Source: an uncultured delta proteobacterium (GTDB lineage Bacteria; Desulfobacterota; Desulfobacteria; Desulfobacterales; Desulfosalsimonadaceae). Taken from it: 64,000 bases of DNA. Positions 4,541 to 29,543 of the stretch are shown piece by piece. The translations under genes and the position numbers were made by a program. The notes under the pieces were generated by a model. That model had not been told where the DNA came from and did not search any database. It saw only the letters and a list, made by a program, of their open reading frames with translations. How positions within the stretch are numbered: the first letter of the stretch is position 1; the number at the start of each line of letters is the position of its first letter. The stretch lies in assembly GCA_963826785.1 (NCBI GenBank), contig CAWGYD010000005.1, positions 288,001 through 352,000 on the forward strand, read 5' to 3'.

Positions 4541-6025
4541 CTATTTACGGGCCGAGATCAGGGCCAGGGCCTTTTCGATGGCCATGGCCTTGTTGACGGT
4601 TTCGATGCGCTCTTTTTCCGGCACCGAATCATAGACGATGCCGGCACCGGCATTGACGGTCAGCTTCCCGTTTTTTACGCAGGCGGTGCGGATGGTGATG
4701 GCCAGATCCATGTTGCCGGAAAAGGATATGTAGCCCACCGCGCCCCCGTAAGGCCCCCGAGGGTATTCCTCCAGTTCACTGATGATTTCCATGGCCCGGA
4801 TCTTGGGGGCGCCGGACAGGGTGCCGGCCGGAAAAGTGGCCTGCATCAGGTCCCATGCGTCCAGGCCCGTATCCAGGTCGCACCGGATATTGGATACCAG
4901 GTGCATGACATGCGAATAGCGCTCCACCACCATCAGGTCGGTCACCTGCACGGTCCCGGTCTGGGCGATCCGGCCCAGGTCGTTTCGGCCCAGGTCCACC
5001 AGCATGAGGTGCTCGGCCCGCTCCTTTTCGTCCTTGAGCAGTTCATCGGCCAGCGCCCGGTCCTCCTGTTCGGAGCCGCCCCGGGGCCGGGTGCCGGCAA
5101 TGGGGCGCAGGGTGGCCACACCGCTTTCCAGGCGCACCATGGTTTCAGGCGAAGACCCCACCAGGGCGGTGCCGTCCAGGTGGAGGAAGAAGAGGTAGGG
5201 AGACGGGTTGATGTAGCGCTGGGCCCGGTAGAGTGAGAGCAGGTTGTCGGGCGCCTGGCAGGAAAACGGCTGGGAAATGACGGCCTGGATGATATCTCCG
5301 GCCTTGATGTGTTCGATGACGGTCTTTACTTTTTCGCCGAAATGCGCCCGGGAATAGGGGGAGGTCAGGCTATGCAAATGATTTTCAGTAAAAGGCGGAT
5401 CCATTGGTATCGCGCCCTTCATGCGTGCCTGAAGGGCATCGATGCGGGACAGGGCGGCCGCGTGGGCGCTGTCGGCATCGGGGTGGTCATCTCCAAAAAC
5501 GATGGCGACAAACATCAGGGTGTTTCGAATATTGTCGAAAATAAGCATCTCATCCGGAAGAATGAAATGGATCAGCGGCTCACTGTCGGGAAGGTGGTGG
5601 GGAATCTTTTCGATCAGGCTTACCGCCTCGTATGCGATAAATCCCACCAGTCCGCCCCAGAACCTGGGCAGGTCGGGCAGTACCGCCGCATTGAACTTTT
5701 CCATGTAATCTCGCAGCAGATCAAAGGGCCTGCCCATGTGGGCCATGCGCTCGCAGCCGCCATTGCTGCTGATCTCCAGGTGATCTTTATAAACGCGCAG
5801 ATGGGCCCGGGCCGAGGTGGAAAGGAAACTGTACCGTCCCCATCTTTCGCCTCCTTCCACACTTTCAAACAGAAATGCAGGCCCGTTTTGCGAGTAGATC
5901 CGGGCCAGCACCGAGACCGGTGTTTCCATGTCGGCCAGGATTTCACGGCAGACCGGAACCACGTTGTGCCGGGAATACAACTGCTTAAAGGTGTTTGAAT
6001 CCGGAAACTGTCTCAATCGCATCAA
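4541..6025 (-). CDS. trpE: Anthranilate synthase component I
   Basis: ESVEGGERWGRYS, NPSPY, PIAGT, EHLMLVDLGRND, PAGTLSGAPK motifs. Confidence 0.96.
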   Translation of the reverse strand: MMRLRQFPDSNTFKQLYSRHNVVPVCREILADMETPVSVLARIYSQNGPAFLFESVEGGERWGRYSFLSTSARAHLRVYKDHLEISSNGGCERMAHMGRPFDLLRDYMEKFNAAVLPDLPRFWGGLVGFIAYEAVSLIEKIPHHLPDSEPLIHFILPDEMLIFDNIRNTLMFVAIVFGDDHPDADSAHAAALSRIDALQARMKGAIPMDPPFTENHLHSLTSPYSRAHFGEKVKTVIEHIKAGDIIQAVISQPFSCQAPDNLLSLYRAQRYINPSPYLFFLHLDGTALVGSSPETMVRLESGVATLRPIAGTRPRGGSEQEDRALADELLKDEKERAEHLMLVDLGRNDLGRIAQTGTVQVTDLMVVERYSHVMHLVSNIRCDLDTGLDAWDLMQATFPAGTLSGAPKIRAMEIISELEEYPRGPYGGAVGYISFSGNMDLAITIRTACVKNGKLTVNAGAGIVYDSVPEKERIETVNKAMAIEKALALISARK

Positions 6026-6104
6026 CTTTTCCTTTTTCTGTTATGTTTCGCTTCAGAAAAACCTTTTTACCAATACCGGCTTGCCGGAACACCCCCCTGA
6101 CCCC

Positions 6105-6577
6105 CATAAGCGCTAACTTAACGCATAGTATCCCCCCCGTAATCATCCTTTATGTCATTCCGGCAGTCTTTTAGCCGGAATCCATCTAAATGATTGCGGG
6201 ATACAAATCCTCCCAATCGGGATTCGTTCTCTCAATCAAATGCATTTTCCACTTTCGTTTCCAGTCTTTCAATCGTTTCTCTCGCTGGATAGCAGATTCC
6301 ATACTTCCATGAAGCTCATACCAAACCAAAAAATGGACTCCATACTTTTTGGTGAACCCTTCCACGAAATTGTTTCTATGTTCCCAAACTCGCTTGATGA
6401 GGTCGGAGGTCACACCGATATAAAGGGTGCCGTTTCTTTTATTTGCAAGAATGTATACCGCTGGTTGCCTGTTCATTTCGTCTTCCTGGATTCCGGCTTA
6501 AAGACTGCCGGAATGACGCTCTTAAGAGGAACGACAAATTAGAAGATATTGCATCGGTCATTAAGTTAGCGCTTATG
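6105..6577 (-). mobile_element. Element B copy 1: non-autonomous IS231-like cassette carrying a REP-flanked GIY-YIG gene (473 bp)
   Basis: Perfect 17-bp TIR CATAAGCGCTAACTTAA/TTAAGTTAGCGCTTATG; 11-bp direct repeat CCCCTGACCCC at 6094-6104 and 6578-6588. Confidence 0.9.
6186..6476 (-). CDS. Stand-alone GIY-YIG nuclease family protein
   Basis: AVYILANKRNGTLYIGVTSDLIKRVWEH...AIQREKRLKDWKRKWK; flanked by inverted hairpins 6154-6184 and 6487-6518. Confidence 0.92.
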   Translation of the reverse strand: MNRQPAVYILANKRNGTLYIGVTSDLIKRVWEHRNNFVEGFTKKYGVHFLVWYELHGSMESAIQREKRLKDWKRKWKMHLIERTNPDWEDLYPAII

Positions 6578-6683
6578 CCCCTGACCCCCCTGCCAGGGGG
6601 GAATTAAGGGGTGGCGTGCCTTCACCGTGAATGTCAGTTCCTTTTACAAAAACACCGCACTGCGGGGTGGGGTGCTTTCAAAC

Positions 6684-6804: not shown

Positions 6805-6876
6805 CTAAAAATCAGCCCGCCACCACCAGAAGCAGTGGCCCGATGTGCATTTATTTGATCGAATGTTTAATTTCAT
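6805..6876 (-). CDS. trpL: trp operon leader peptide MKLNIRSNKCTSGHCFWWWRADF
   Basis: Manual translation; three consecutive TGG codons upstream of terminators and trpE. Confidence 0.85.
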   Translation of the reverse strand: MKLNIRSNKCTSGHCFWWWRADF

Positions 6877-8622: not shown

Positions 8623-8856
8623 ATGGAAATCAATGTCAAAGAAGCCAGATCAAAGATCAGCGCCCTTTTAGACAGAACCCGCAAGGGGGAGGAAATCATT
8701 ATTGTGCGACGGGGCAGAAGGGTTGCGCGACTCGTCCCTTTTGACGTGAAGGAGAGGCGACTGCCCGATTTAAGCGACTTCAGGTCCTCGATCGCGATAA
8801 AAGGGGATGCCCTCAGTCAGATGGTCATTCGGCAGCGCAATGAGGAACGTTATTGA
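8623..8856 (+). CDS. Phd/YefM-family antitoxin
   Basis: MEINVKEARSKISALLD...GEEIIIVRRGRRVARLVP; two TGTACA palindromes upstream (8557-8583). Confidence 0.88.
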   Translation: MEINVKEARSKISALLDRTRKGEEIIIVRRGRRVARLVPFDVKERRLPDLSDFRSSIAIKGDALSQMVIRQRNEERY

Positions 8857-9281
8857 TGTTTTATCTGGATACCAGTGTGCTGGTGGCCTATTACTGCCCC
8901 GAAAGTCTGAGCGAATCGGTTCAAAAATTTCTAAGCGAACAAGTTAAGCCGGGTATCAGTTCTTTGACGGAAGTAGAGCTATTTTCCGCAGTGGCCAAAA
9001 AAGTGCGCACAAAGGAAGTCGATCAGGCGGACGGGAATCGTATTTTAGCCAAATTTTCTTCCCATGTGGACGGCGAATTATTTACGATGATTTCCGTGGA
9101 AAATCATCACTGGCGGATGGCCCGGGGGTGGCTCGGTCTTTTCACTACACCGCTTAGAGCACTTGATGCCATTCATCTTGCAATCGCTTCTGCCGAAGGG
9201 TTGGAATTGATCACGTGTGACAGGTTTCTTCATCAGGCTGCCGGTGCTCTGAATGTCAAGAGCCATTTCATGGATGGATGA
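8853..9281 (+). CDS. vapC: VapC/PIN-domain toxin
   Basis: YLDTSVLV...LRALDAIHLA...ITCD motifs; overlaps the antitoxin. Confidence 0.9.
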   Translation: MMFYLDTSVLVAYYCPESLSESVQKFLSEQVKPGISSLTEVELFSAVAKKVRTKEVDQADGNRILAKFSSHVDGELFTMISVENHHWRMARGWLGLFTTPLRALDAIHLAIASAEGLELITCDRFLHQAAGALNVKSHFMDG

Positions 9282-13895: not shown

Positions 13896-14031
13896 GCCTT
13901 TTGCCCGCTTCCATTCTTCCCGTCGGTGTTTGATGTCAGGTTCCTCTGGTAAATCCTCGAAAACACGGTTGACAGAGAGAATCTGCCGCATTAAAGTAGT
14001 TTTAAAGCCTACTTTACTGGAGGGACAATAT

Positions 14032-14280
14032 ATGAAAACCATTACGGCTGCCAATGCGAATCGCGGGTTTTCCAAATTGCTGCGTGAAGTGAGAAAGGGG
14101 GAAGAAGTCACCATTTTGTCGAGAGGTACGCCCGTGGCCAAAATCATTTCTGTTCATCAAGAGACGCTTCAAAAAAATGCAATGAAGAATCTCCTGTTGA
14201 CCCGATTAAAAGCCCAGGCGGTAACGGGATCTCGGAATTGGACCCGTGACGAATTATATGATGACCCTCCATGCGCGTAG
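14032..14280 (+). CDS. Phd/YefM-family antitoxin
   Basis: MKTITAANANRGFSKLLREVRKGEEVTILSRGTPVAKI; RBS GGAGG; inverted repeat TAAAGTAG/CTACTTTA upstream. Confidence 0.88.
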   Translation: MKTITAANANRGFSKLLREVRKGEEVTILSRGTPVAKIISVHQETLQKNAMKNLLLTRLKAQAVTGSRNWTRDELYDDPPCA

Positions 14281-14720
14281 CCCTGGATACGAATATAATC
14301 GCCTATGCCGAAGGAATCGGAGATGCTTCCCGCTGCGCCGATGCCATCCGGCTGATTGAACAATTGCCCGCCGAAATTATTCTGCTTCCCGCCCAAACTT
14401 TGGGGGAACTTTTCCGGGTCCTGACCGGAAAGGCAAAACGGGAGGCCGGGCTTGCACGAGAGGCGATTATGACATGGGCCGATAGCTTTGAAGTTGCCGA
14501 TTCATCATGGACGGCTTTCCAGGCTGCGATGGATCTGGTGGTTGATCACCGGTTACAGATCTGGGACGCTTTAATCATGTCTGTTGCAGCCGAAAATCAC
14601 TGTCGCCTCCTCTTGAGCGAAGACTTGCAAAACGGATTCATCTGGAGAGGTGTCACCGTGGTTAATCCCTTTGCTACGCCATCTTCCCCGCTGCTCGATA
14701 ATCTTCTGCAAACCGGTTGA
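14271..14720 (+). CDS. vapC: VapC/PIN-domain toxin
   Basis: VALDTNIIAYA...IWDALI...LLSEDLQNG...VVNPF. Confidence 0.9.
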   Translation: MRVALDTNIIAYAEGIGDASRCADAIRLIEQLPAEIILLPAQTLGELFRVLTGKAKREAGLAREAIMTWADSFEVADSSWTAFQAAMDLVVDHRLQIWDALIMSVAAENHCRLLLSEDLQNGFIWRGVTVVNPFATPSSPLLDNLLQTG

Positions 14721-16584: not shown

Positions 16585-16723
16585 TCTATGATGAAATTGA
16601 AAGAAATCGGTTCAATATTGATGAAGCCGTAAAAAGTCGGATTTTACGCTTTCGTCATTCCGGCGGAGGCCGGAATCTACAACAAACTAAGTTGGTTATA
16701 GACTCCGGTTTTCACCGGAATGA

Positions 16724-18571
16724 GTGCGTCCGTAAAGGCGCCATATCAGCACGGTGTAAGTCCGTGTCGGGGTAAGCCAAGGCCCCGTAGTCGAGGGTAA
16801 CTGCGTCACCGCGAGGTGGGGTGGAGAGCAACCGGAGACGAACTGGCGGTCCGCAGGATGACGAACTTGATTCGGCGGGATGCAGCGACGAGCCTGCTCA
16901 TTCATGGTGAAGTCCGAAAATCGTCCGGTACGCTGGGTATTGGCGCGTAAAGCGGTGCCGGGGCGCATCACGTGGTTGGAGGTGGAACGCCGGAAAGGTG
17001 TGGCGAGATAAGCGGAGAGACCTGTTTGCGAGGTGACGCAGGCAGGAGTCAGAGCCTTCATAGTACCGAAGCAGCCGATGCTGCGGAAAGCGCGGGAAGC
17101 AAAACCGTGCCGAGGGAAGGGAGGCAGGAAGGTAGATGCGTGAAATCCAACGACAGGCAAAGCATAAGCAAAGCGCCGGCAGTGCCGGTAACGGCTAAGC
17201 AAGGCGCAGAGACCGGGCATCGGGACTGGTGCTGGGTGGAAGCCTCGATTTGGACGCCGCGCATGCTGGCGGCGCTGGAAAACGGCGTCAAAGGAGGCAA
17301 GTGGTTCAGCTTGATCGACAAGCTGGTTCGTCCCGGCACCCTGGAACTGGCGTGGCACAAGGTCGCGCGAAACAAGGGGGCGGCCGGAGTGGACGGGCAG
17401 AGCGTTGAGCGGTTTTCGTTGAAGGCGGATAAATATCTTAAGGAGCTGGAAGAAGCATTGAAGGCCGGCACTTACCGGCCGCAGCCGGTCAAGCGCGTGG
17501 AGATACCCAAAGGGCCGGGTCGCACTCGACCCCTGGGCATTCCGGCGGTAAAAGACCGCATCGTACAAACTGCGCTGAAGCTGGTAATAGAGCCGATTTT
17601 CGAATGGGACTTTCTGGATTCGAGCTATGGCTTTCGACCTGGACGCGGATGCAAAGACGCCCTGCGGGAGGTAGACGGTTTGATTAAGGCAGGCTACACG
17701 CACGTTGTGGACGCCGACCTTGCGAGCTACTTTGACACCATTCCGCATGACCGATTGATGATCCGAGTGCAGGAGCGCATCAGCGACGGGCGTATTCTGG
17801 ATCTGATTCGGGGATACCTGGGTCAGGATATCGTCCGTGGGCTGGAGCGCTGGACGCCGACCGGAGGAACTCCGCAAGGTGCGGTGATCAGTCCCCTGCT
17901 GGCGAACCTGTACCTGCATCCGCTGGATGTGCTGATGCGGACAAAAGGTTATCGCATGGTCCGATACGCAGATGACTTTGTGGTGATGTGTCCCAGTGCA
18001 GAGGCAGCGCAGTCGGCCCTGGCCGACATACGCGCCTGGGTAAAAGAAAATGAACTTACCCTGCATCCGGACAAAACCCACGTGGGAGACTGCACAGTAG
18101 AAGGACAAGGCTTTGACTTCCTGGGTTACCGGTTTGAAGCCGGAAAGCGATGGGTTCGAAAGAAAAGCCTCAAGTCCCTGCGGGAGCGTATACGGGCCAA
18201 AACCGGCCGATCCCGTGGAGAGAGCCTGGACCAGATAATAGGCAGTTTGAATCCGATGCTCATAGGTTGGTTTGGCTACTTCAAACATGCGAATCCATTT
18301 ACCTTTAAGATGATTGATGGTTTTGTCCGCCGCCGACTGCGATCTGTCTTGCGCAAACAAAAGCGACGACCGGGTATGGGTCGCTGCCTGGCCGATCATA
18401 AACGCTGGCCTAATGCATTTTTCGCTGAGCACGGGCTTTTCACCTTAACCGAAGCCCATGCTGTGGCGCGCCAGTCACGATGTTGAAACTACCAACTGGA
18501 GAGCCGTGTGCGGGAGAACCGCACGCACGGTTCGGAGGGCGGGGAGGGCGAGAGCCTTTCCCGACCCCTAT
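16724..18571 (+). mobile_element. Group II intron (retroelement)
   Basis: 5' GTGCG at 16724; domain V GAGCCGTGTGCGGGAGAACCGCACGCACGGTTC and domain VI ending CCCTAT at 18571; removal restores the MITE sequence CCGGAATGA|CGAAAGCG. Confidence 0.93.
16972..18486 (+). CDS. ltrA: Group II intron reverse transcriptase/maturase, no endonuclease domain (true start probably further downstream)
   Basis: NKGAAGVDG, RPLGIP..KDR, SYGFRPGR, GTPQGAVISPLLAN, RYADDF, FDFLGY; ends after domain X. Confidence 0.95.
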   Translation: MVGGGTPERCGEISGETCLRGDAGRSQSLHSTEAADAAESAGSKTVPREGRQEGRCVKSNDRQSISKAPAVPVTAKQGAETGHRDWCWVEASIWTPRMLAALENGVKGGKWFSLIDKLVRPGTLELAWHKVARNKGAAGVDGQSVERFSLKADKYLKELEEALKAGTYRPQPVKRVEIPKGPGRTRPLGIPAVKDRIVQTALKLVIEPIFEWDFLDSSYGFRPGRGCKDALREVDGLIKAGYTHVVDADLASYFDTIPHDRLMIRVQERISDGRILDLIRGYLGQDIVRGLERWTPTGGTPQGAVISPLLANLYLHPLDVLMRTKGYRMVRYADDFVVMCPSAEAAQSALADIRAWVKENELTLHPDKTHVGDCTVEGQGFDFLGYRFEAGKRWVRKKSLKSLRERIRAKTGRSRGESLDQIIGSLNPMLIGWFGYFKHANPFTFKMIDGFVRRRLRSVLRKQKRRPGMGRCLADHKRWPNAFFAEHGLFTLTEAHAVARQSRC

Positions 18572-18683
18572 CGAAAGCGTAAATTCGGACTTTTTACGGG
18601 TTCATCAATATTGATTCTCTATATAATCGATATGTTTGCTTAGCCGGACGGTCCGACACCCCCCTTTATCCCCCCTGGAGGGG

Positions 18684-18928
18684 CATAAGCGCTGACTTAA
18701 CGCATAGTATCCCCCCCGTAATCATCCTTTATGTCATTCCGGCAGTCTTTTAGCCGGAATCCAATGAATAGCAAAGGGTGCCGTTTCTTTTATTTGCAAG
18801 AATGTATACCGCTGGTTGCCTGTTCATTTCGTCTTCCTGGATTCCGGCTTAAAGACTGCCGGAATGACGCTCTTAAGAGGAACGACAAATTAGAAGATAT
18901 TGCATCGGTCATTAAGTTAGCGCCTATG
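18684..18928 (-). mobile_element. Element B copy 3: internally deleted (245 bp), only ~18 GIY-YIG codons remain
   Basis: Same TIRs (1 mismatch each); 11-bp TSD CCCTGGAGGGG at 18673-18683 and 18929-18939; inserted in a family-C REP. Confidence 0.9.
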
Positions 18929-19357
18929 CCCTGGAGGGGGGAATTTTCCGATATCCCCCACTCCCCCCTTGAGGGGGGAATTAAAGGGGGGGTGTTTCGG
19001 CGTCAGCCACAACGCAATCACAGATAGTCTTATACTGTAAAAACAACCTATGGTTATGCGGAAGTTACACACTTCGCGGCATATTCACATAAACACTTTT
19101 CCCATTCAACCTTTATCTTTTCGTCGATTCCCTTCAGGAGGGGGGATAAAGGGGGAGTGCAAGCCGAACACAGGTAACACTTTGGAGCTTTAACTCAAAA
19201 AAAACTGGATTCCGGATAAAAGCCTCCCGGAATGACTTAAAAGAGAAAATCCTGAATTTGTTAGGTCCCAACAAAGATTGACAACTCAATCCCTTTACAA
19301 TATTTTAATTTCATATTCAGACGGGAATTTGCAGCTTAAATTCAAACAATCAATGTT

Positions 19358-19488
19358 GATGAAGCCGTAAAAAGTCGGTTTTACGCTTTCGTCATTCCGG
19401 CGGAGGCCGGAATCTACTACAAACTAAGCTGGTTATAGACTCCGGTTTTCACCGGAGTGACGAACTTCGGACTTTTTGCGGGTTCATC
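19358..19488. mobile_element. MITE A copy 3 (131 bp)
   Basis: Non-palindromic TSD AATGTT at 19352-19357 and 19489-19494. Confidence 0.9.
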
Positions 19489-19515
19489 AATGTTTATTAA
19501 ATCAAGAGAGAAACG

Positions 19516-19731
19516 ATGAGAGGCGAACTTACCGCTATAATTGAAAAGGCCCCCGGAGGTGGATATTGGGCCATTTGTCCGGAAATTCCTGGTGCCAATG
19601 GACAAGGTGAAACCATCGAAGAAACAAAAGATAATTTAAAAGAGGCTGTTCTGCTTATTCTGGAGGACCGGCTTGAAGACATCAAACGGGGCCTTCCCGA
19701 TGACATCATTCAGGATACGATAGCTCTCTGA
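19516..19731 (+). CDS. hicB: HicB-family antitoxin
   Basis: YWAICPEIPGANGQGETIEETKDNLKEAV motif. Confidence 0.88.
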   Translation: MRGELTAIIEKAPGGGYWAICPEIPGANGQGETIEETKDNLKEAVLLILEDRLEDIKRGLPDDIIQDTIAL

Positions 19732-19911
19732 TGAAACGAAAAGATCTTGAAAAAATGTTGCGTTTAGCCGGCTGTTATCTGAAGAGAGAAGGAAAAATCA
19801 CATTCCTTATGGATTAACCCCAGAACAGGCGTTTTGGAAGCCGTACCAAGGCATGCGGAATTAAAAGAACCTTTGGCAAGAAAGATCTTGAAAAGTTTAG
19901 ACGCAGCATAA
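19731..19911 (+). pseudogene. hicA: HicA-family toxin, +1 frameshift in an A run (~19793-19797)
   Basis: Removing one A gives MKRKDLEKMLRLAGCYLKREGKSHSLWINPRTGVLEAVPRHAELKEPLARKILKSLDAA. Confidence 0.82.
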
Positions 19912-20295
19912 TTCGACTTAACCCATCGCATCACCCCAGCGAGCATCCCCAGCGAGCATCCCCCAGCGAGCATCCCCCCAACGTCATTCCGGAGATCTTT
20001 TATCCGGAATCCATCTCCTTCATCCGGCATTCCGGCCCGATCCCACAAACATCTTGACAACACTGGTACCGGTCACCCACAACGTTAATTTCTTCTTTCA
20101 TAGCAATCCATTCCCCATACAAGGAGGGCGCCCACAATCCATTCCCCCCTCGAGATGTGCGCCCAATCTCCATTCCTCCCCTTGAAAAGTGGAAGCCATT
20201 TTTCAAATCGTTGACGGGCCGGACCAAAAACTAATGATTATTTATTGCATATCCCCTCCAGCAAGTATATATTAAATGCCATTACTGGAGGAAAT

Positions 20296-20917
20296 ATGCA
20301 AGAAATTGGAGTGGATCTGCCGGATAGTGTCTGGCTCCAACATTATTTTGCTCATTATGCCAACCCCAAGGCGGTAATTGCGCGTCTTGTGCGCAACGGA
20401 GTGTTATATCGTCTCAAAAGAGGGCTTTATTTCAAGGCGGAAAAAAAAAGCGATCCTTACACCAAGGGAAAGGCTTCGAACCGCCTGTACGGTCCATCTT
20501 ATGTCTCTTTTGTCTATGCGCTCAGGTGGTACGGTCTTATACCGGAACATGTGGCGCACATCACTTCGGCAACAATGGGTAAGGGCAGAAAAAAAAGATA
20601 TGATACACCGTTGGGATCGTTTTTTTATCAGGATATCCCAGCGGATGCCTATCCTCATGGAATAGGCTTTGTCGGTGAGAGATCTGATCGGTTTTTGATG
20701 GCATCTCCGGAAAAAGCCCTTTGCGATGAATTATACCGGGTCTCCGGAATACGTTCCGTAAAGAGATTGAAGCACTCTCCTTTCGGATGATTTGCGGTTG
20801 GATCATGATATGCTGGGCAAGCTGAACCATAAAGAATTGATCTTATTCTCTGCAAAATACCACTCATCAACGTTGGATACGTTTATCAGGTATCTGGAAA
20901 GAGGTCGGGATGCGTGA
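20296..20917 (+). CDS. AbiEi-like type IV antitoxin (frameshift near 20765-20780)
   Basis: RLKRGLY, YGPSYVSF..AL..YGLIPE, ASPEKALCD; C-terminus DDLRLD...ERGRDA in another frame to 20917. Confidence 0.8.
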
Positions 20918-21791
20918 GGCCGCTGTACAATTATTCGAAGAATATCTGCAAAAAAATGACGGGGCCGTGGACAGGGCTTTGGCCGAGGTCATCCAGGTCA
21001 TCGCATTGCTGGGGCTGTCGCGTACGGATTTTTTTTCCCAGGCAGCATTTTACGGTGGCACCGCCCTGAGACTTTTGTATAATCTGGATAGATTTTCCGA
21101 AGATCTGGATTTTTCGCTGATTCAACCGGCAAAGGAGTTCCGGTTGTCAGCCTATCTGGCCGCCTTGCAGGCTGAAATGGAAGCATTCGGATTCATGGTG
21201 GATATTGAAGACCGAAAGAAAAGCACCGACACTTCCATTGAATCCGCTTTTATAAAAGCCAACACAAGAACGCATGTAATTCAGGCGGGAGTGCCGCACG
21301 CCATTGCAAAAAGAATCCACAGAAGCGCAATATGTAAAGTGAAACTTAAAGTCGACGTTGACCCGCCGCCGGGTGCTGAGTTTGATGCAAAGTATGTTGA
21401 TGATCCGGTTCCCTTTTCCATCCGGTCCTACTCCGGGCCGTCTCTACTGGCGGGGAAAATGGACGCGATTCTGTACCGGGGCTGGCAAAACCGTGTAAAA
21501 GGGCGGGACTGGTATGATTTCGCCTTTTTTGTTCGAAAAAAAATTCCGCTTTTACTACCGCACTTTGAAGCACGAATTCGGCAGAGAGGTGTCTACACCC
21601 GGCAAATCCCCTTGAGCCATGAAGAATGTGTGCAAATGATTGCGGATCGTATCAAAACAGTTGATTTTGGAGCGGCAAAAGCCGATGTCATTGCCTTTTT
21701 ACCCCATCCCGGGGATCTGGATGTATGGTCCAGGGATTATTTTGACCATGTGCTACGCAATTTGCGATTTCTTCCCGAATATACAGGCTAA
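20910..21791 (+). CDS. AbiEii/AbiGii nucleotidyltransferase toxin
   Basis: FYGGTALRLLYNLDRFSEDLDFS, KGRDWYD motifs. Confidence 0.92.
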   Translation: MREAAVQLFEEYLQKNDGAVDRALAEVIQVIALLGLSRTDFFSQAAFYGGTALRLLYNLDRFSEDLDFSLIQPAKEFRLSAYLAALQAEMEAFGFMVDIEDRKKSTDTSIESAFIKANTRTHVIQAGVPHAIAKRIHRSAICKVKLKVDVDPPPGAEFDAKYVDDPVPFSIRSYSGPSLLAGKMDAILYRGWQNRVKGRDWYDFAFFVRKKIPLLLPHFEARIRQRGVYTRQIPLSHEECVQMIADRIKTVDFGAAKADVIAFLPHPGDLDVWSRDYFDHVLRNLRFLPEYTG

Positions 21792-21941
21792 AACAATTAG
21801 ATCGAAAATCTTTCTGAACCTCACCGTCATTCCGGAGATTTTTTATCCGGAATCCATCTGTGAGCAGGGCCTTTGACAAATGAGGCAACATTAATTATTA
21901 TGTGGCCACATTGATATCAATTAAACAGGAGAAGAATCGTC

Positions 21942-22211
21942 ATGGAAAGGGTCGGCATAAGAGAATTAAAAGAGAATATGAGCCGCTATATGAGCAAAAT
22001 CAGAACGGGGGAAAAAATTATTTTGACGGATCGAAAAAAGGAAATCGCCATCATAATGCCTCTTGGGAAAAAGCCCGGGGAAGAAAAACTCTATCAGCTG
22101 ATTCAGCAGGGATTGGCTTCCTGGGACGGCGGCATGCCGGAGGGCGTACCGGGAAGGATCGCCTCAAAGGGAAAGAGCGTATCTTCGGCAGTTATTGAAG
22201 ACCGGCGGTAA
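21942..22211 (+). CDS. Phd/YefM-family antitoxin
   Basis: VGIRELKENMSRYM...GEKIILTDRKKEIA. Confidence 0.88.
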   Translation: MERVGIRELKENMSRYMSKIRTGEKIILTDRKKEIAIIMPLGKKPGEEKLYQLIQQGLASWDGGMPEGVPGRIASKGKSVSSAVIEDRR

Positions 22212-22213
22212 CC

Positions 22214-22957
22214 ATGATTCTGTATCTGGATACCAGCAGTCTGGTCAAATTATATGTGGAAGAAGCAGAATCAGCAGAGATTGAGAGCATTGTCAAATCA
22301 TCTGAAGCTGCCGCAACTTCGATCGTCGCTTATGCGGAGGCAAGAGCGGCTTTTGCCCGGCGATTCAGGGAAGGCGCCTTCACCCATGATGATTATAATC
22401 GCCTGAAACAGTACTTTGACAAGGATTGGCGCAATTACTTTGTTTTGAATGTCACAGAAGAAGTGATCGGCCTGGCGGGTAATCTTTCAGAAGAGCATGC
22501 ATTAAGGGGTTTTGATTCCATCCATTTGGCTTCGGCAGTCATATTGCACCGGAAGACATCCTCGCCCGTTGTATTCTCATGCTTTGATGAACAGCTCATG
22601 AAAGCAGCCACTCAGAAAGGACTTAACAAAAAATCGGAAACCTCCCGGGAGAAGACGGCTGTGAATCATGTACATTTTCAGTTGCTTCAAAAAATGGCAA
22701 AAAAATATGTCTGGTGGGAAATGCCCGATGCCGCCATGATCAGGCCTGAGCGCATTATCAAGCAGGTGATGAATATCGGTGATTTTGATGATGTCCTTCT
22801 GCTGGTTGAATCCCTGGGAGAGCCGTATTTACGGAAGATTTTGAAGAATGCCGAGGCCGGCGATTTTAATTCCCGATCCTGGACTTACTGGCATTACCGG
22901 CTGGGACTTGCCGAACCCGGCCATGTCCCCGCCCCGCCAAAGCGGAAAATTCAATGA
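22214..22957 (+). CDS. VapC PIN toxin read-through fused to a DUF6922-like antitoxin domain
   Basis: YLDTSSLVKLYVEE...LRGFDSIHLASA...FDEQL, then MAKKYVWWE...RIIKQVMNIGDFDD...SWTYWHYRLG. Confidence 0.75.
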   Translation: MILYLDTSSLVKLYVEEAESAEIESIVKSSEAAATSIVAYAEARAAFARRFREGAFTHDDYNRLKQYFDKDWRNYFVLNVTEEVIGLAGNLSEEHALRGFDSIHLASAVILHRKTSSPVVFSCFDEQLMKAATQKGLNKKSETSREKTAVNHVHFQLLQKMAKKYVWWEMPDAAMIRPERIIKQVMNIGDFDDVLLLVESLGEPYLRKILKNAEAGDFNSRSWTYWHYRLGLAEPGHVPAPPKRKIQ

Positions 22958-23288
22958 TCCGAACCTTTAAACCCCGCATGGATGTTCTGCCTCCTGCCCA
23001 GAAACGGTTATGGGGGAACTCCGCAACACCCAGTTCGAAGCAAAAGATTACCGGGATATTGCCGTCATGATCGCGGCCGGTATCAGCCTCTCCAAAGGGC
23101 TTGCCGGCGCGCGCGGAATGTATGGGCTGCAATTTCAGCCGATTGAAAGCCTGAAAGCGATGGTCTATTTTGAGGGTGGAGATCTGCATACGCTGAAACC
23201 CGAAGAAAAGGAAATCCTGATCCGCGCCGCCGGAAAGGTGCGTGACCTGCCGGTGGTTGAGATTGTCTCTCGCCATTTGGCGCTATGA
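22954..23288 (+). pseudogene. Internally deleted AbiEii-like nucleotidyltransferase
   Basis: N-terminus MIRTFKPRMDVLPPAQKRLW joined almost directly to the C-terminal EAKDYRDI...LKAMVYFEGGDL; GGTA/DxD core absent. Confidence 0.7.
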
Positions 23289-23363
23289 ACCAAAAGAGGT
23301 TATCGGCAGCGGTTCATGCGCTGCGCAATTTGCGATTTCTTCCCGAATATAAAAGGAGCTTTC

Positions 23364-23759
23364 ATGCTGAAGCCCGATGATATGCACAAAGTACAACAAT
23401 TTTGTTCAACATACTCCGAAATAGCGGCAGCCTATCTCTTCGGGTCTTCGGCAACCGGCAAGGACCGTAAAAAAAGCGACATTGATATCGCCATTATGGT
23501 AAAATCTAAAATCGAGGCTATGGTGCGGGTCGAAATGGAAACGGCCCTTTCCACCCGACTGCATCGGGATGTCGATCTCGTGATTTTCGATCAGGGCTCT
23601 CCTCTTCTTCAGCATCAGATTCTGAAATACGGCCGCCTGGTCTATGAGGCGGATCCAAAAGAGCGTGTTCGGCAGGAAGTTTTTGCCCGAAATGCATATT
23701 TGGACAGCGCCTATTTGTACCGCAAGATCAAACCGGAGACCGCGCATGGTGGACATTGA
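23364..23759 (+). CDS. MNT (MntA-like) nucleotidyltransferase antitoxin
   Basis: AAYLFGSSATGKDRKKSDIDIAI, DVDLV. Confidence 0.88.
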   Translation: MLKPDDMHKVQQFCSTYSEIAAAYLFGSSATGKDRKKSDIDIAIMVKSKIEAMVRVEMETALSTRLHRDVDLVIFDQGSPLLQHQILKYGRLVYEADPKERVRQEVFARNAYLDSAYLYRKIKPETAHGGH

Positions 23760-24172
23760 GCTTCTTTCCAGAAAACTCTCACGCCTTCAGTGCTATGTGG
23801 ATGAGTTAAAGGCAGCCACGGATATTACCTGGGAAAAGTACCGATCCGATCTTCGGACCAAGAGCCTTTGTGGAGCGTTTTCTGCATCTTGCCATAGAAG
23901 AGGTGATCGACATCGCCAACCACATTGTCTCGTTTGAACAATGGCGGGAGCCTTCCGGATATCGGGATCTGTTGCAGATTCTTTCAGAAAAAGGAATTAT
24001 CCCGGAAAAACAGCTTCCCCGGTTTCAGAATATGGCTTCGTTCCGTAACATGCTGGTCCATCGCTACGAAAATATCGATGAAGAACTGGTTTACGGCATC
24101 TTCAGCAAACACTTGGCAGATTTTGAACTTTTTGCAGCCTTAATCATGCAATGGGTTAAAATATCCCACTAA
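23746..24172 (+). CDS. HEPN/DUF86 (HepT-like) RNase toxin, frameshift near 23862
   Basis: MVDIELLSRKL... then VERFLHLAIEEVIDIANH...FRNMLVHRY (R-X4-H). Confidence 0.85.
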
Positions 24173-24268
24173 CCCATCACCATCACACCCATAACCCCTA
24201 ACCCCTAACCACCCATAACCCATAACCCATAACTACCCATCCTACCCATCACCCATAACCCATCACCT
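24166..24268 (+). repeat. C-rich heptamer tandem array (TAACCCA/TAACCCC/TCACCCA)
   Basis: ~14 imperfect units starting at the HEPN stop codon. Confidence 0.9.
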
Positions 24269-24482
24269 ATCGTTCCCTGGATTCTCTGACTGCCGTGATA
24301 ATATCTTTTGTAGTTGCCTTGGTTTGGATTCCAGGAACATCAAATGGAGATTTTTTGCTTTTTGTAAAAATTATTGAAAATGTTTCACCACCCCTTCTTT
24401 TGATAATAACTTCTTCATTTCTTGCGGTATTAAGAACATCAGCGAGACGCTGTCTTGCTTCAGAATATGTATATACTTTCAT
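24267..24482 (-). CDS. Phd-like antitoxin
   Basis: MKVYTYSEARQRLADVLNTARNEEVIIKRRGG. Confidence 0.85.
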   Translation of the reverse strand: MKVYTYSEARQRLADVLNTARNEEVIIKRRGGETFSIIFTKSKKSPFDVPGIQTKATTKDIITAVRESRER

Positions 24483-24489
24483 GATTGCT

Positions 24490-24879
24490 TTACTCCAAAA
24501 TTGTGATCCCCATCTCCCGCGCTACCCTTTGCATTCCAACGTCAAGCGTGAGTAACGGACTGCGAAGGTTTTCAGCGCATTTCAAAAAGTATGCATCATA
24601 TGCATATAGGTTAAATTTAATTGCGATGCTTAATGCTGATTTTATATCCGTTTTTCTTAAATCAACGGGTATCTGTTGAACAATCTCCCAAGCTGATTCG
24701 ACTTCTTCCTTTATTAAAACGTGTTTTTTCATCATTGCCGTCAATGCATTTCCAATTTCAAAAGGCAAAACATCAGGTGCAATTAATTCATGGCCTTCGG
24801 TAAATTGGATGATTTTTTCTTTTTCCGGCTCGTTCAAAGCAACTGCTATAAATGTATTTGTGTCAGCGACTATTTTCAT
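24490..24879 (-). CDS. vapC: VapC/PIN toxin (upstream of its antitoxin)
   Basis: MKIVADTNTFIAV...FEIGNAL...YAYDAYFL...LLTLD. Confidence 0.9.
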   Translation of the reverse strand: MKIVADTNTFIAVALNEPEKEKIIQFTEGHELIAPDVLPFEIGNALTAMMKKHVLIKEEVESAWEIVQQIPVDLRKTDIKSALSIAIKFNLYAYDAYFLKCAENLRSPLLTLDVGMQRVAREMGITILE

Positions 24880-24915
24880 AGGTACAATTGTACGCATTTC
24901 GCCCCCGGTTGTCAA
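24880..24915 (-). promoter_or_regulatory. Sigma70 promoter giving a probably leaderless vapC mRNA, with palindromic operator
   Basis: Minus strand TTGACA-N17-TACAAT-N7-ATG; GTACAATTGTAC palindrome over the -10. Confidence 0.65.
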
Positions 24916-25072
24916 ACCAAATTTCAGCGCGGCCCGAATGCCCCGCATAACCAGATGGCACCCCTAATAATCTAATAATCCAAAATCCACTTGATCCAGT
25001 TTGGTTTTATTTGGTATGGTTGGTTTAAAAAGACCTGCCAGGTCTTTTTAAACCAAAAGGAGTTGAATTATT

Positions 25073-25309
25073 ATGAAGATAGTCAATATTTCTGAGGCAA
25101 AAACCAATCTTTCCAAGCTGGTGGCGCTTGTTTACCGTGGAGAGAAGGTTGTTATTGCAAAAAACAACCTGCCGCTTGTGGATCTGGTTATTCATAAACC
25201 GGAAGGAAAAAGAAAACTCGGATTGCTGGCAGGCAAATTCACTGTTCCGGACAATATAATGGATGAGGATGCTGAAATAAACTCAATGTTCTATGGCAGT
25301 GATTCATGA
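25073..25309 (+). CDS. Phd/YefM-family antitoxin
   Basis: VNISEAKTNLSKLV...GEKVVIAKNNLP...RKLGLLAG. Confidence 0.9.
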   Translation: MKIVNISEAKTNLSKLVALVYRGEKVVIAKNNLPLVDLVIHKPEGKRKLGLLAGKFTVPDNIMDEDAEINSMFYGSDS

Positions 25310-25677
25310 ATATCATCATTGATACCCATATTTTTCTCTGGGCATTGTCTGATCCGGAGAGGATAAGTGCTTCGAAACGTACGGCATTGGAAGATTTGTC
25401 CAATACGATCTATGTCAGTGCTGTCAGTATCGCTGAAATTATGATTAAGGCATCTGTCGGGAAGCTTGCGATAGACTTTAATCCGGCAGATATGGCTACC
25501 GAAAGCGGCTTCGCGCTTCTTGATTTCAGCGCGGAAGCAGCGTTGTTGCTCAAGGATATGCCATTTCACCATAAAGATCTTTTCGATCGCATGCTGATAG
25601 CGCAAAGCATTACAGACAACTTTCCGATAATGACGGAAAATCCGAAAATAGCGCTGTATGATTGCCGGGTAATGTGA
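25306..25677 (+). CDS. vapC: VapC/PIN toxin
   Basis: IIDTHIFLW...VSAVSIAEIMIK...HKDLFDRMLIAQS. Confidence 0.9.
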   Translation: MNIIIDTHIFLWALSDPERISASKRTALEDLSNTIYVSAVSIAEIMIKASVGKLAIDFNPADMATESGFALLDFSAEAALLLKDMPFHHKDLFDRMLIAQSITDNFPIMTENPKIALYDCRVM

Positions 25678-25964
25678 TTATGTAATGGCATATCAGATAA
25701 CGCATTGCCACCTCCGCCCCATGTCGCGTCGTTTTCTTCTTCATGAAAAGGTGATTCAGCGGGTTTTCCCCAAAGATTTACAGAGAAAATACCAGTATGT
25801 CAGATCCATTTTATGTAAATAGACTGTATCCTTTTACATGCTCTAATTCGCATTAATGTTCACAATCGTTACAGTTCATCTTGTCATCTTGACATTTTGT
25901 CATTTATTACATATCTTAGTCTGTAAGCAATCAGCGTTTCAAACGATATCCAAAAGAGGACATT

Positions 25965-26228
25965 ATGCTTGTAACCATCGATAAAAGAGGCAGTATCAAT
26001 TTGCCAGCTTCCGTTCGGAAGGATTTAGGTATTCGGTCAGGAACCCACCTGGAGCTGACCGTGGCACCCGGCGGGGCCATCACACTTTTTCCGGTTGAAA
26101 TATATCGCAGCATCAAACTCAGCGATGCCGGTTTATTAAAAATTAAAGAGGCCAGAGCATCAGAACCGGCCACATTCCCGGAATGGTTTGACAAGGAACT
26201 TGCCGATGCCGGAACTGATCCCGAATAA
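25965..26228 (+). CDS. AbrB/MazE-family antitoxin
   Basis: VTIDKRGSINLPASVRKDLGIRSG. Confidence 0.85.
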   Translation: MLVTIDKRGSINLPASVRKDLGIRSGTHLELTVAPGGAITLFPVEIYRSIKLSDAGLLKIKEARASEPATFPEWFDKELADAGTDPE

Positions 26229-26508
26229 AAAATTCATCGCTGATCTTGTAAATTTCAAAAAGAATCCGGCATTAATCAAAAAAATTGCCAAATGCTTGAA
26301 GTTTCTGGAAACCAATCCCCTTCATCCGGGGCTGAAAATTGAGCGGATCGCCAATGACCCGAGTGCTTGGTCCGCTCGTGTGGACTTAAAATACCGAATA
26401 TCCTTTGAACCTTCTGCCTTTCGTGAGAATGGTGCGCCGGACTGGACTTTCCCTATAAATCTTTTGCGCATCCTGGAGCATGACGATCTTTACAAAACTC
26501 CTCATTAA
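26206..26508 (+). CDS. RelE-like toxin
   Basis: KCLKFLETNPLHPGLKIERI...WSARVDLKYRISF...HDDLY; overlaps the AbrB gene. Confidence 0.75.
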   Translation: MPELIPNKKFIADLVNFKKNPALIKKIAKCLKFLETNPLHPGLKIERIANDPSAWSARVDLKYRISFEPSAFRENGAPDWTFPINLLRILEHDDLYKTPH

Positions 26509-26835
26509 ATTCTTTTTTTCAGTCTGATGTCAGAACGCAGCATAATTCGACTTAACCCATCGCATCACCCCAGGTAGCATCCCCCCAACGTCATTCCGGA
26601 GATCTTTTATCCGGAATCCATCTCCTTCATCCGGCATTCCGGCCCGATCCCACAAACATCATGACAACACTGGTACTGGTCACCCAACAGCATTGCCCGG
26701 CTCCGTTTCACCGGAAGCTCAAAATTTATCTTCCGTTTCTTCTTCCATAGCATTCCATTCCCCCCTCGAGGGAGGCGCCCACATTCCATTCCCCCCTCGA
26801 GGGAGGCGCCCACATTCCATTCCCCCCTCGAGGGG

Positions 26836-27308
26836 CATAGGCGCTAACTTAATGACCGATGCAATATCTTCTAATTTGTCGTTCCTCTTAAGAGCGTCAT
26901 TCCGGCAGTCTTTAAGCCGGAATCCAGGAAGACGAAATGAACAGGCAACCAGCGGTATACATTCTTGCAAATAAAAGAAACGGCACCCTTTATATCGGTG
27001 TGACCTCCGACCTCATCAAGCGAGTTTGGGAACATAGAAACAATTTCGTGGAAGGGTTCACCAAAAAGTATGGAGTCCATTTTTTGGTTTGGTATGAGCT
27101 TCATGGAAGTATGGAATCTGCTATCCAGCCAGAGAAACGATTGAAAGACTGGAAACGAAAGTGGAAAATGCATTTGATTGAGAGAACGAATCCCGATTGG
27201 GAGGATTTGTATCCCGCAATCATTTAAATGGATTCCGGCTAAAAGCCTGCCGGAATGACATAAAGGATGATTACGGGGGGGATATTATGCGTTAAGTTAG
27301 CGCTTATG
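26836..27308 (+). mobile_element. Element B copy 2 (473 bp, inverted relative to copy 1)
   Basis: TIRs CATAGGCGCTAACTTAA / TTAAGTTAGCGCTTATG; imperfect flanking repeat CCCCTCGAGGGG / CCCCTTGAGGGA. Confidence 0.9.
26937..27227 (+). CDS. GIY-YIG nuclease, near-identical to 6186-6476 (REK changed to PEK)
   Basis: Same translation except R>P; REP hairpins at 26895-26926 and 27229-27259. Confidence 0.9.
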   Translation: MNRQPAVYILANKRNGTLYIGVTSDLIKRVWEHRNNFVEGFTKKYGVHFLVWYELHGSMESAIQPEKRLKDWKRKWKMHLIERTNPDWEDLYPAII

Positions 27309-27514
27309 CCCCTTGAGGGAGGCGCCCACATTCCATTCCCCCCTCGAGGGAGGCGCCCACATTCCATTCCCCCCTCGAGGGGGGCGCCCCACACTCCATT
27401 CCCCCCTAGAGGGAGGCGCCCACAAATCTCCATTCCCCCCTTGAGGGGGGCGCAGGGGGGGTGTCCCCACGCTGGCAATGAACTCCACAACCCATGGGTC
27501 ACGTCCGCAGTCAT

Positions 27515-27920
27515 CGTTTAGCCAGCTTTTATCTGAAGAGAGAATGAAAATCTCATTTTTTATTGATTAAACCCCGAACAGGCGTTTTGAAAACCATACA
27601 ATGCATGCGGAAACTAAAAGAATCAAGGCCTTTGAAAAATGAGGCAACGTTAATTATTATGTGGGCACATTGGTATCAATCAAAGAGGAGAAGAATCGTT
27701 ATGGAAAGGGTCGGCATAAGAGAATTAAAAAGAGTAATATGAGCCGCTATATGAGCAAAATCAGAACGGGGAAAAAAATTATTTTGACGGATCGAAAAAA
27801 GGAAATCGCCATCATAATGCCTCTTTGGGAAAAAGATATAGCTTAAGGCTTCGTTAGGCATATACTAGAATCATAACAAAAAATCGGAAACCTCCCAGGA
27901 GATGCCGGCTGTGAATTATC
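27515..27920 (+). pseudogene. Mosaic of degenerate fragments of hicA, phd promoter/5' end and the vapC junction
   Basis: 27515-27622 matches 19761-19870; 27627-27836 matches 21868-22072; 27874-27920 matches 22624-22670. Confidence 0.85.
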
Positions 27921-28130
27921 CGTTTGAATGGGAACAGATTATCATCGAGGCGAGAGAGAAGGATTTGTGGGTGGAGCCGATCACTGTTTCTCGTTTGATC
28001 CGGGAATTTCCAGCAAAGAACATGCAGGCAATCAAGTGGATTAAACCCGTGAACGAAACAAAATTACTGAAACTCCTTGAGACCGTCAGTGATGATATCG
28101 GGATTATCAACCAGTATGGTGAATTTCGCT

Positions 28131-28324
28131 TCAATGATCAGAAAGAAGGACTTTTATCTTGTCTTCCGATATCCAGAGGGTAATGTCGATATCCAGGGTG
28201 GCCTTGGGGTTTCCCCATTTCGCATTGGCCAAGCCGCCAATGACCATGTAATAGACACTGTGATTGTCCAAGACGGCGGTAATATCGCGAAGCGATTTTT
28301 CAAAAACATTTTTATTTCGGGCAT
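28131..28324 (-). pseudogene. N-terminal fragment of a nucleotidyltransferase (DUF6036-like)
   Basis: YMVIGGLANAKWGNPKATLDIDI motif, then truncation. Confidence 0.7.
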
Positions 28325-28533
28325 GCCAGCGCCTTGTGCATTTTAATAATGCCTTCGACATTGATTTCTCTTTGCCTGGCATCCTCCAGAATCAATTCAT
28401 ACAACTCGAAAACTGCGGCAAGGCTCTGATCGTCATCCATCTTGTCCCGGCGGTTTTTCTCCCATTCGTTAAATCGATGGAGCGATTCAAGATATTGTTT
28501 GTATGGGTTTTTGGTGGGGGATTGGTTTTTCAT
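28312..28533 (-). CDS. Small hypothetical protein, probable partner of the NTase
   Basis: 73-aa charged helical ORF overlapping the NTase start. Confidence 0.5.
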   Translation of the reverse strand: MKNQSPTKNPYKQYLESLHRFNEWEKNRRDKMDDDQSLAAVFELYELILEDARQREINVEGIIKMHKALACPK

Positions 28534-28835
28534 GGGGATAGGATATTATACTGATCCCTGGCTCCTTGCAGAATCTCATCACGGAAATAGCGGCTGAGGC
28601 TGTTTGGGGTATTTATGTCTACTCTGCGACCTCCAAAAAGCCTTGAAAGTTCCTGTTCCATATCGAATAGCTCGAAAAAACCAACTCGTGCGCCGGGTTT
28701 AAACTCTACCAATACATCAACGTCGCTGTTTGGCCCAAAGTCTTCTCGTAAAACAGACCCAAAGAATGCGAATCGCCGGATTTTATTCCGTTGGCAAAAA
28801 TCAGCAATTTCCTTTTCCGGTATTTTTATTTGCAT
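28530..28835 (-). CDS. Minimal nucleotidyltransferase (MNT); no adjacent HEPN partner
   Basis: IADFCQRNKIRRFAFFGSVLREDFGPNSDVDVLVEF...GRRVDI. Confidence 0.9.
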   Translation of the reverse strand: MQIKIPEKEIADFCQRNKIRRFAFFGSVLREDFGPNSDVDVLVEFKPGARVGFFELFDMEQELSRLFGGRRVDINTPNSLSRYFRDEILQGARDQYNILSP

Positions 28836-28873
28836 ACAAATATCTTCTTTTTATGAGGCAATGGGTTAGGGGA

Positions 28874-29287
28874 TTAAGGGGTGCTGGGTGGTTCGAGTCG
28901 TTTCATCCAGTTCAGGCGATCATAGTGTTTATCATAGGAATATAATTCGTATATTTCCTTTATCCTCATGCTGCAGGCATTATATGCATCGATATAGTCG
29001 ATACGTTTTTCCTCGTAAACGGCAAGCGCATGAAGAATGACTTCTTTATTTTCGCACTCCAGGTTTTCTGTGTTGAGAATCTTTTCGACCTTTTCGCGAA
29101 TGTCTGTTCTTGACAGCTCGTAATAAGATTCAAGAACCCATATAATTTCGGCTATGACCATGTCATTGGTACACAATATTTCTTCTCCGGCAACAGCTTT
29201 CCGGAAAAGCGCTTCGCAGGCATTTGCCTGGTGAGCAACATCGTTAATGAGGAAGCGAAGAAATATGTTGGTGTCAACAAAGCGCAT
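28874..29287 (-). CDS. vapC: VapC/PIN toxin
   Basis: MRFVDTNIFLRFL...IAEIIWVLESYY...DYIDAY...YSYDKHYD. Confidence 0.9.
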   Translation of the reverse strand: MRFVDTNIFLRFLINDVAHQANACEALFRKAVAGEEILCTNDMVIAEIIWVLESYYELSRTDIREKVEKILNTENLECENKEVILHALAVYEEKRIDYIDAYNACSMRIKEIYELYSYDKHYDRLNWMKRLEPPSTP

Positions 29288-29288
29288 T

Positions 29289-29543
29289 TTACTCCTTCCC
29301 TTCGGCGATTTTCTTTGCAATTGCCTTGCGGGCGGATGCACGTATATCTTCGAAGTCGCCGGGTTTGCCTTTTGCCGGTACGCTGCCCTTTAATTCGAGA
29401 ATATCTCCATGGATAGGCCTAAGAATAACCTTCCCGTCTTCGAGCAGGTAAAGCAAGCGATCGTTTGGCTTGATTCTGAGCAATTCCCTAATCTTTTTAG
29501 GAATTGTTGTTTGTCCCTTACTGGTGACGATTGACTGCACCAT
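29289..29543 (-). CDS. AbrB/MazE-family antitoxin
   Basis: SIVTSKGQTTIPKKIRELLRIKPND. Confidence 0.9.
   Translation of the reverse strand: MVQSIVTSKGQTTIPKKIRELLRIKPNDRLLYLLEDGKVILRPIHGDILELKGSVPAKGKPGDFEDIRASARKAIAKKIAEGKE

Follow-up and report, generated by a model that had tools for sequence, protein, structure and literature searches.

The element described here is very probably a mobile insertion cassette that is moved in trans by a DDE transposase of the IS186 group and carries the nuclease Ssn as its passenger. A hairpin-ssn-hairpin unit lies between two IS186-type ends of 17 bp each, and new copies form by insertion, which duplicates 11 bp of the target. Derivatives devoid of ssn have moved as well, and landing takes place in a family of C/G-run repeats, mostly at the hairpin centre. 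An earlier note on this DNA had proposed a MIC-like, transposase-less IS4 cassette that targets one repeat family, and this proposal is upheld by the ends, the duplications and the repeat sites (12 of 12). The parts are each of a known kind; what is new is the vehicle, an IS186-ended cassette carrying the Ssn unit. A literature search, mainly of open journals, retrieved no paper that describes passenger cassettes derived from IS186 or a transposase that moves Ssn.

Cassette copies in the window and in the source genome

The window is the whole 64-kb stretch of DNA that was analysed, positions 288001-352000 of contig C5 in the source genome (G000; 4.43 Mb, 11 contigs, 88% complete). It contains three copies of the cassette, whose coordinates, lengths (473, 245 and 473 bp) and ends, as given in the earlier note, were all re-read correctly. 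Copy 1 (6105..6577, plus strand) is full length, 473 bp, and has no transposase. Its 17-bp terminal inverted repeats, at 6105..6121 (plus strand, identical to the IS186A end) and 6561..6577 (minus strand), are both perfect. It is flanked by a perfect 11-bp target-site duplication, CCCCTGACCCC, at 6094..6104 on the left and 6578-6588 on the right, and the right duplication together with the rest of the interrupted C6-N4-G6 (family C) repeat spans 6578..6600. Copy 2 (18684..18928, plus strand) is a 245-bp deletion form with 9 bp in place of element positions 81-317, which retains both ends, both hairpins and 18 ssn codons; its perfect 11-bp duplication, CCCTGGAGGGG (left 18673..18683, right 18929-18939), is centred on the C6-N4-G6 hairpin. 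Copy 3 (26836..27308, minus strand) is full length (473 bp) and inverted. It sits where C6-N4-G repeat units of 31 bp follow one another in tandem, and its duplication is irregular (at best 12 bp with 2 mismatches). The ends of copies 2 and 3 are at most one base per end off the 17-mer. Thus the 17-bp terminal inverted repeats claimed for the three copies are present with 0-1 differences per end, the two perfect 11-bp duplications claimed were found at copies 1 and 2, and the placement of all three copies in the family-C repeat was confirmed, each lying within C6-N4-G6.

Copy 1 lies in the leader region of its downstream neighbour trpE (anthranilate synthase component I; 4541..6025, minus strand). 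Upstream of the copy we found a Trp-rich leader peptide ending in FWWWRADF (6805..6876, minus strand), a putative attenuator. The ssn gene of copy 1 is located between this leader peptide and trpE, all in one direction. Transcription from the trp promoter may extend through copy 1, and trpE may be affected by the insertion. In genome G003 the gap between trpE and cinA is 517 bp, compared to about 1.26 kb here, and contains neither ssn nor the ends, which makes it an empty locus at the level of genes. An antisense ORF of 100 aa in copy 1 (6240-6542) has no Pfam match.

Other repeats and genes surround the copies in the window. A group II intron (16725-18573, with an RT/maturase ORF at 16972-18486) directly follows an SRM-containing repeat cluster; it is the sole Rfam match in window positions 1-36000. 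Of its three near-identical copies in the source genome, two have a 245-bp cassette at a distance of about 110-135 bp. Genes of toxin-antitoxin type (PIN, MazE/AbrB, AbiEi/AbiEii, nucleotidyltransferase) are dense at 19500-29550, 8853-9281 and 13930-14720. SRM hairpins and a recurring spacer lie between these genes, and the stretch looks like an array or a defence island. A third repeat family, GATGAASCCGTAAAAAGT, has 65 matches at 1 mismatch in the source genome, including those at 16620-16640 and 19358-19378 of the window; it brackets SRM hairpins in composite clusters.

The census of the source genome contigs, made by BLAST and end scans, gave 12 two-ended copies, more than first seen: 6 are full length and 6 are internally deleted. 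Five copies are 473 bp long, one is 475 bp (with a 2-bp insertion within the gene), five are 245/246 bp, with a single internal deletion common to all, and one is 333 bp, with an additional outer end. Four one-ended or decayed remnants (C8:22694, C6:201848, C11:4614 and C10:21200) were excluded from every count; the C6 remnant is degraded (79%, many small deletions). The end pattern has 21 exact matches in the source genome, compared to 0.002 expected by chance and 0 for a reversed control pattern. The tabulated duplications of the 12 copies comprise 7 perfect ones of 11 bp, 2 with one mismatch and 3 irregular ones. The five 473-bp copies are 1-5 bases apart, and the five 245/246-bp copies, which lack most of ssn, occupy five distinct sites with a perfect duplication at four. 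In all three full copies with mismatched duplications (C3:319655, C8:28207 and window copy 3) the difference includes the centre, TCGA versus TCAA/TTGA; this could reflect repeat conversion, recombination between copies or a mismatched target.

One rival explanation takes the copies for inert remains of an earlier burst that spread further only through segmental duplication or through exchange between C6-N4-G6 repeats, by recombination or gene conversion. Imperfect duplications would then be expected, as after recombination between copies. Such duplications are seen at 5 of the 12 copies, the same pattern being described for ISRm22 (PMC1525189); moreover, the C8 and C6 remnants are decayed and no transposase was found in the 88%-complete assembly. 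We nevertheless regard this explanation as very unlikely. Every clean copy has its own 11-bp duplication, and near-identity among the copies and to the element in other sequencing runs points to recent movement. Comparison of the 600-bp flanks revealed common sequence limited to short repeats and, for two copies, one adjacent group II intron, which ends 70-95 bp before the junctions and has the opposite orientation relative to the cassette. Larger segmental duplication, which the earlier note had named as a competing source of the copies, was rejected on this basis, as the shared stretch stops before the junctions. A past burst of transposition is in itself compatible with a cassette mobilised in trans.

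Since the sites are C/G homopolymer runs and the C6 copy (79%) has many small deletions, we also considered an assembly artefact of homopolymer-rich repeats. The element is found at 99.7-100% in independent runs, which effectively refutes this idea, and the same architecture in unrelated genomes and a distinct duplication at each site leave it with hardly any probability. In run X1, 376 bp of the element are found at 100%. A contig of run X2 corresponds to 6105-6427, with a single difference; past the end it runs on for 30 letters of other sequence, and this different continuation supports the element boundary in another flank. Among the reads of independent runs, whose coverage stopped short of the flanks of this site, no joint spanning the cassette was found. 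A search for a congeneric genome of the source organism found none, no empty allele at the nucleotide level was obtained, and the plasmid collection contained no cassette, with one partial ssn match at 70%.

The copies are clustered: 10 of 12 have a neighbour copy at most 30 kb away, while simulation over the 419 repeat units gave a mean of 4.1, with 37 of 10000 simulations reaching 10. This clustering is consistent with local hopping.

IS186-type ends and the transposases that share them

At all 17 positions the cassette end agrees with each of the two ends of E. coli IS186A, an element flanked by a 10-bp duplication. To our knowledge, IS186-group elements are known mainly from E. coli. IS421, 99% identical to IS186, is assigned to the IS231 group of the IS4 family (PMC6352166). 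This group is characterized by CAT-N7-AA-N2-TAA ends (PMC2266710, Table 1) and duplications of 10-12 bp, and is described as nearly restricted to relatives of Bacillus cereus in an account that leaves IS186 unnamed (PMC2266710). The cassette ends fit the signature and its 11-bp duplication falls within the range. The IS231-type label of the earlier note is thus correct for the group, in which IS421 is listed, but the lineage is that of IS186/IS421 and not Bacillus IS231 itself.

An exact search for the end gave at least 122 loci in genomes and at least 126 in metagenomes, and 247 loci were taken further. They contain at least 66 distinct two-ended elements: 12 longer than 1.3 kb, 8 of 351-600 bp and 46 of up to 350 bp. 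We scanned the ORFs of 11 of the 12 long elements, leaving out L080, which is nearly identical to L075. All match NF033592 and/or PF01609 and are IS4-family DDE transposases. A single-ORF DDE transposase lies between such ends in L047, L068, L072, L075, L093, L098 and L288, all outside the source genome. Two partner transposases are 45% and 34% identical to InsL, and the Y(2)R(3)E(6)K motif is visible in alignments of two partners to this protein. Autonomous partners of 1.3-1.5 kb bearing these ends are spread over many phyla and are also found in the order of the source; the end is present in 14 of 250 other genomes of this order. L288 (genome G113, same order) is intact and 1377 bp long; its 11-bp duplication is perfect, and it adjoins a C/G-run hairpin. 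Within the same family, 1 of 57 genomes (G013) has transposase fragments at contig ends, with near-identical element ends. Viral contigs yielded at least 118 loci with end pairs mostly about 1339 bp apart, judged from this spacing to be ordinary IS186. The transposase ORFs of L040, L068, L072, L075 and L098 resemble that of IS186 in stopping well short of the right end, close to a PP or PWG motif. At L116:301-330 two ends overlap at TTAA in a 30-bp element, the smallest possible derivative, whose duplication is not clean.

Searches of the source assembly (88% complete) for a resident enzyme gave nothing over the cut-off with the NF033592 profile, a best E of 0.053 by tblastn for an IS186-type transposase, no IS186-type transposase with a custom HMM and no autonomous element in a relaxed scan for end pairs. 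Four PF01609 matches were read as IS1634/IS701-like or partial, none with cassette ends, and were discarded. The IS4/IS231 transposase with the same ends that the earlier note had suggested looking for is thus found in relatives but not in the source assembly. Multi-copy elements often drop out of metagenome assemblies, so that the absence of a match in the assembly does not establish absence of the enzyme. At L003 (source genome C1:852946-856557), a PilT-like ATPase ORF carries an in-frame IS701-like transposase segment in its middle.

With IS186/IS421 of E. coli (about 1.34 kb) the cassette shares the 17-bp ends, a 10-11 bp duplication and insertion between G/C runs in a palindrome. It differs by its length of 245-473 bp, its lack of a transposase, its passenger and its target, a 419-copy repeat family. 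With two IS ends, a passenger gene and no transposase, it has the structure of a MIC. MIC231 of the Bacillus cereus group likewise has two IS231-group ends, a passenger and no transposase, and is mobilised in trans (PMC6199540). In contrast to MIC231, the cassette has 473 bp, below the quoted 0.7-3 kb (PMC6199540), and is of IS186 lineage and outside Bacillus; its passenger is itself a repeat-flanked nuclease unit and it is multi-copy in one genome. The 'CA region' described for MIC231 is not evident, the cassette having a C7 run near one end with no A run after it. As MIC231 is defined in that source, the cassette is not a MIC231 in the strict sense.

According to the mechanism we propose, an IS186-group DDE transposase would act in trans, from an unassembled or transient copy, and bind the cassette ends. 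It would excise the cassette and insert it at (G/C)3-N5-(G/C)3 sites, where the two strands would be cut 11 nt apart. Replication and gap repair would raise the copy number, and nearby sites would be favoured. Since the ends hardly vary between phyla, the enzyme could come from any IS186-group element that visits the cell. Ssn would not be needed in cis for movement, and the cassette would be a vehicle spreading ssn and its two hairpins within, and probably between, genomes.

Insertion into C/G-run hairpin repeats

All 12 of the 12 rebuilt empty sites lie inside a repeat of the form ACACCCCCCT-N2-6-CCCCCCT-NN-AGGGGGG. The C6-N4-G6 family to which it belongs has 419 copies in the source genome. 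It supplies 820 of 9269 candidate S3-N5-S3 sites, so that the chance of the observed placement would be 0.088 to the 12th power, about 2e-13, a significance that is overstated since sites are non-independent. For S4-N7-S4 sites, 708 of 1428 are supplied by the repeat (p 2e-4, overstated for the same reason). The target consensus of IS231A, GGG-N5-CCC, is similar to these S3-N5-S3 sites. Among the 9 cleanest sites, 8 are hairpin-centred CCCC-N7-GGGG and 1 is CCCC-N7-CCCC; copy 1 is inserted 9 bp from the hairpin centre, within the C-rich arm. The orientation of the cassette to the repeat is identical in 8 of 9 informative sites (two-sided p about 0.04).

The published target of IS186 is GGGG-N6/7-CCCC (PMC5009759), whereas the cassette prefers CCCC-N7-GGGG, the reverse polarity. 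None of the 211 sites of IS186 polarity present is used, a point against mobilisation by an IS186-group enzyme. Elements from other genomes, among the matches listed, use both target polarities. Their duplications have at most 1 mismatch in 41 of the 66 foreign elements among these matches, 34 of them being 11 bp long, and G/C occupies 85-94% of positions 1-3 and 9-11. The rebuilt empty sites of elements among the matches listed are palindromic in 22 of 40 cases, compared to 1.7% of shuffles. IS186-group elements in general insert into GC-rich hairpins, so that this behaviour is not peculiar to the cassette.

A comparable preference is described for ISRm22 of the IS4 family, all copies of which lie in one palindromic repeat, at its symmetry axis (PMC1525189). 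Both elements have a minority of mismatched duplications, but ISRm22 is autonomous, with 6-bp duplications and a different repeat (PMC1525189), and the cassette is non-autonomous, with 11 bp.

The single DUF559 gene of the source genome (L151, C5:9250-10000) is framed by inverted C6-N4-G6 repeats and resembles the DUF559 passengers of elements L077 and L083. Its product is a candidate for the cognate nuclease of the 419-copy C6-N4-G6 family.

The Ssn passenger and other cargoes of IS186-type ends

The ssn gene of copy 1 (6186..6476, minus strand) encodes a 96-aa GIY-YIG nuclease (Pfam GIY-YIG, E 7.8e-15), and that of copy 3 (26937..27227, plus strand; E 1e-13) encodes 96 aa with one amino-acid change. 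The reading of the full copies as encoding a 96-aa GIY-YIG protein is thus confirmed by both ORFs, and the PF01541 match identifies the passenger as a short single-domain protein of this type. In copy 1, an SRM/NTS-type hairpin with an 8-bp stem and a 9-nt loop lies downstream of the gene (6153..6185, plus strand; z -5.2), and a second, inverted SRM hairpin lies upstream (6486..6518, minus strand; z -3.8). Both fit the published SRM pattern at 1 mismatch and none does so at 0. A scan for promoters and terminators gave 1 weak promoter, at chance level, and 0 terminators. A search against solved structures gave no match.

Ssn proteins are short single-domain GIY-YIG proteins flanked by NTS/SRM hairpins (PMC11893778). 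SsnA of Neisseria meningitidis cuts single-stranded DNA a few bases 5' of the hairpin (Chenal et al. 2025, PMC11893778), and its residues Y6, Y17 and E64 are essential for activity (PMC11893778). Residues Y8, Y19 and E66 of the passenger, compared by spacing, are equally placed. With this spacing, 96 aa in a single GIY-YIG domain and two inverted GTCATTCC-type hairpins in common with published Ssn, the passenger has the features by which an Ssn single-strand nuclease (cd10448 type) with its two hairpins would be recognized. By homology, it is predicted to cut single-stranded DNA just 5' of its hairpins. The cassette differs from published Ssn by the 9-nt loop of its hairpins and by a gene that is multi-copy and lies between DDE-transposon ends. 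The link between the nuclease and a second repeat, put forward in the earlier note, is indeed present; the pairing itself was already published as Ssn with NTS/SRM (PMC11893778).

The source genome has 70 hairpins with this stem, 26 within cassettes or remnants and 44 free. The only other Ssn of this genome is 63% identical and flanked by a different stem variant, so that the cassette Ssn is likely the cognate of the 44 free hairpins. Among these, 31 have a short loop unlike that of the cassette and 13 a long loop; the idea that the cassette seeded most free hairpins is unsupported, as just 13 of 44 have long loops.

Two-ended Ssn cassettes are also found at L066, L120 and L286, and ssn adjoins 5 of 183 one-ended matches among those listed. 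The dN/dS of ssn is 0.07 versus L120 and 0.08 versus L066, other pairs being saturated; this purifying signal may predate capture. Of 19 Ssn genes drawn from 16 further genomes of the class, 2 are accompanied by an IS186 end on one side and 0 on both.

As SsnA cuts 5' of its hairpin, which here would fall between each hairpin and the neighbouring end, Ssn might itself be mobility machinery: nicking beside the inward-facing hairpins, it would move the hairpin-ssn-hairpin core, at least upon first entry into an empty IS186 miniature element, and would possibly help later moves too. The insertion-sequence look of NTS-ssnA-NTS was remarked upon by Chenal et al., with no transposase named as mover where they raise it (PMC11893778). 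Variable spacers between end and hairpin among cassettes, and an IS186 end on one side only in relatives L326 and L327, also favour such a role, as do 4 changes of the 'has IS186 end' label on the Ssn tree, with one origin in 0% of bootstrap trees. This tree is poorly resolved, however, and no well-supported branch appears to contradict a single capture; besides, the bases just inside both ends are common to the window cassette, L120 and L066. The moving unit in the source genome is bounded by IS186 ends and duplication, not by hairpins. Copies deprived of most of ssn moved on their own, and the short IS186-ended elements found elsewhere, among the matches listed, mostly lack ssn. We therefore consider it improbable that Ssn drives the movement, and retain transposition in trans by an IS186-group enzyme.

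Passengers are not limited to Ssn. The 8 two-ended elements of 351-600 bp among the matches listed comprise 2 with Ssn, 2 with DUF559, 3 with a four-helix-bundle IVP and one with no recognised gene; no passenger of another type was seen among them. Each passenger type has its own flanking repeats. The seven passenger-bearing elements represent about 5 independent lineages, a small and partly kin sample. Strong hairpins occur in 18 of the 46 short elements (up to 350 bp) among the matches listed, compared to 3.7% of shuffles. Multi-copy IS186-ended miniature elements in genomes G218 and G222 (L289, L290, L296, L297, L302, L316) and G133 (L304-L313) are lined inside by 7-bp tandem repeats like those flanking the four-helix-bundle IVP genes.

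Tentatively, the near-invariant 17-bp IS186 ends may form a cross-phylum shuttle with a selective cargo, namely modules in which repeats flank a gene: Ssn and SRM hairpins, DUF559 and C/G-run hairpins, or IVP and 7-bp tandem repeats. This shuttle would insert into the hairpin repeats belonging to such modules and leave paired-hairpin deletion derivatives. The three passenger types in 7 of 8 mid-sized elements, the hairpin enrichment in short elements and the palindromic empty sites suggest this possibility, which is weakened by the count of about 5 lineages, the 2 of 19 Ssn genes near an end with none flanked on both sides, and the short loops of 31 of 44 free hairpins. If true, DDE transposases would offer 'orphan' families of palindromic repeats and their small nucleases a way to spread and to colonise new hosts.

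The cassette involves no new transposition chemistry, and most sampled Ssn genes lie outside such cassettes. The IS186 group gains relatives in other phyla, together with passenger cassettes whose targets are GC-rich hairpin repeats, and the source genome adds a recent multi-copy burst with strict repeat targeting. The Ssn paper, in its discussion of these elements, did not settle by what means the hairpin-nuclease-hairpin unit moves or its repeats are spread (PMC11893778); one route is identified here.
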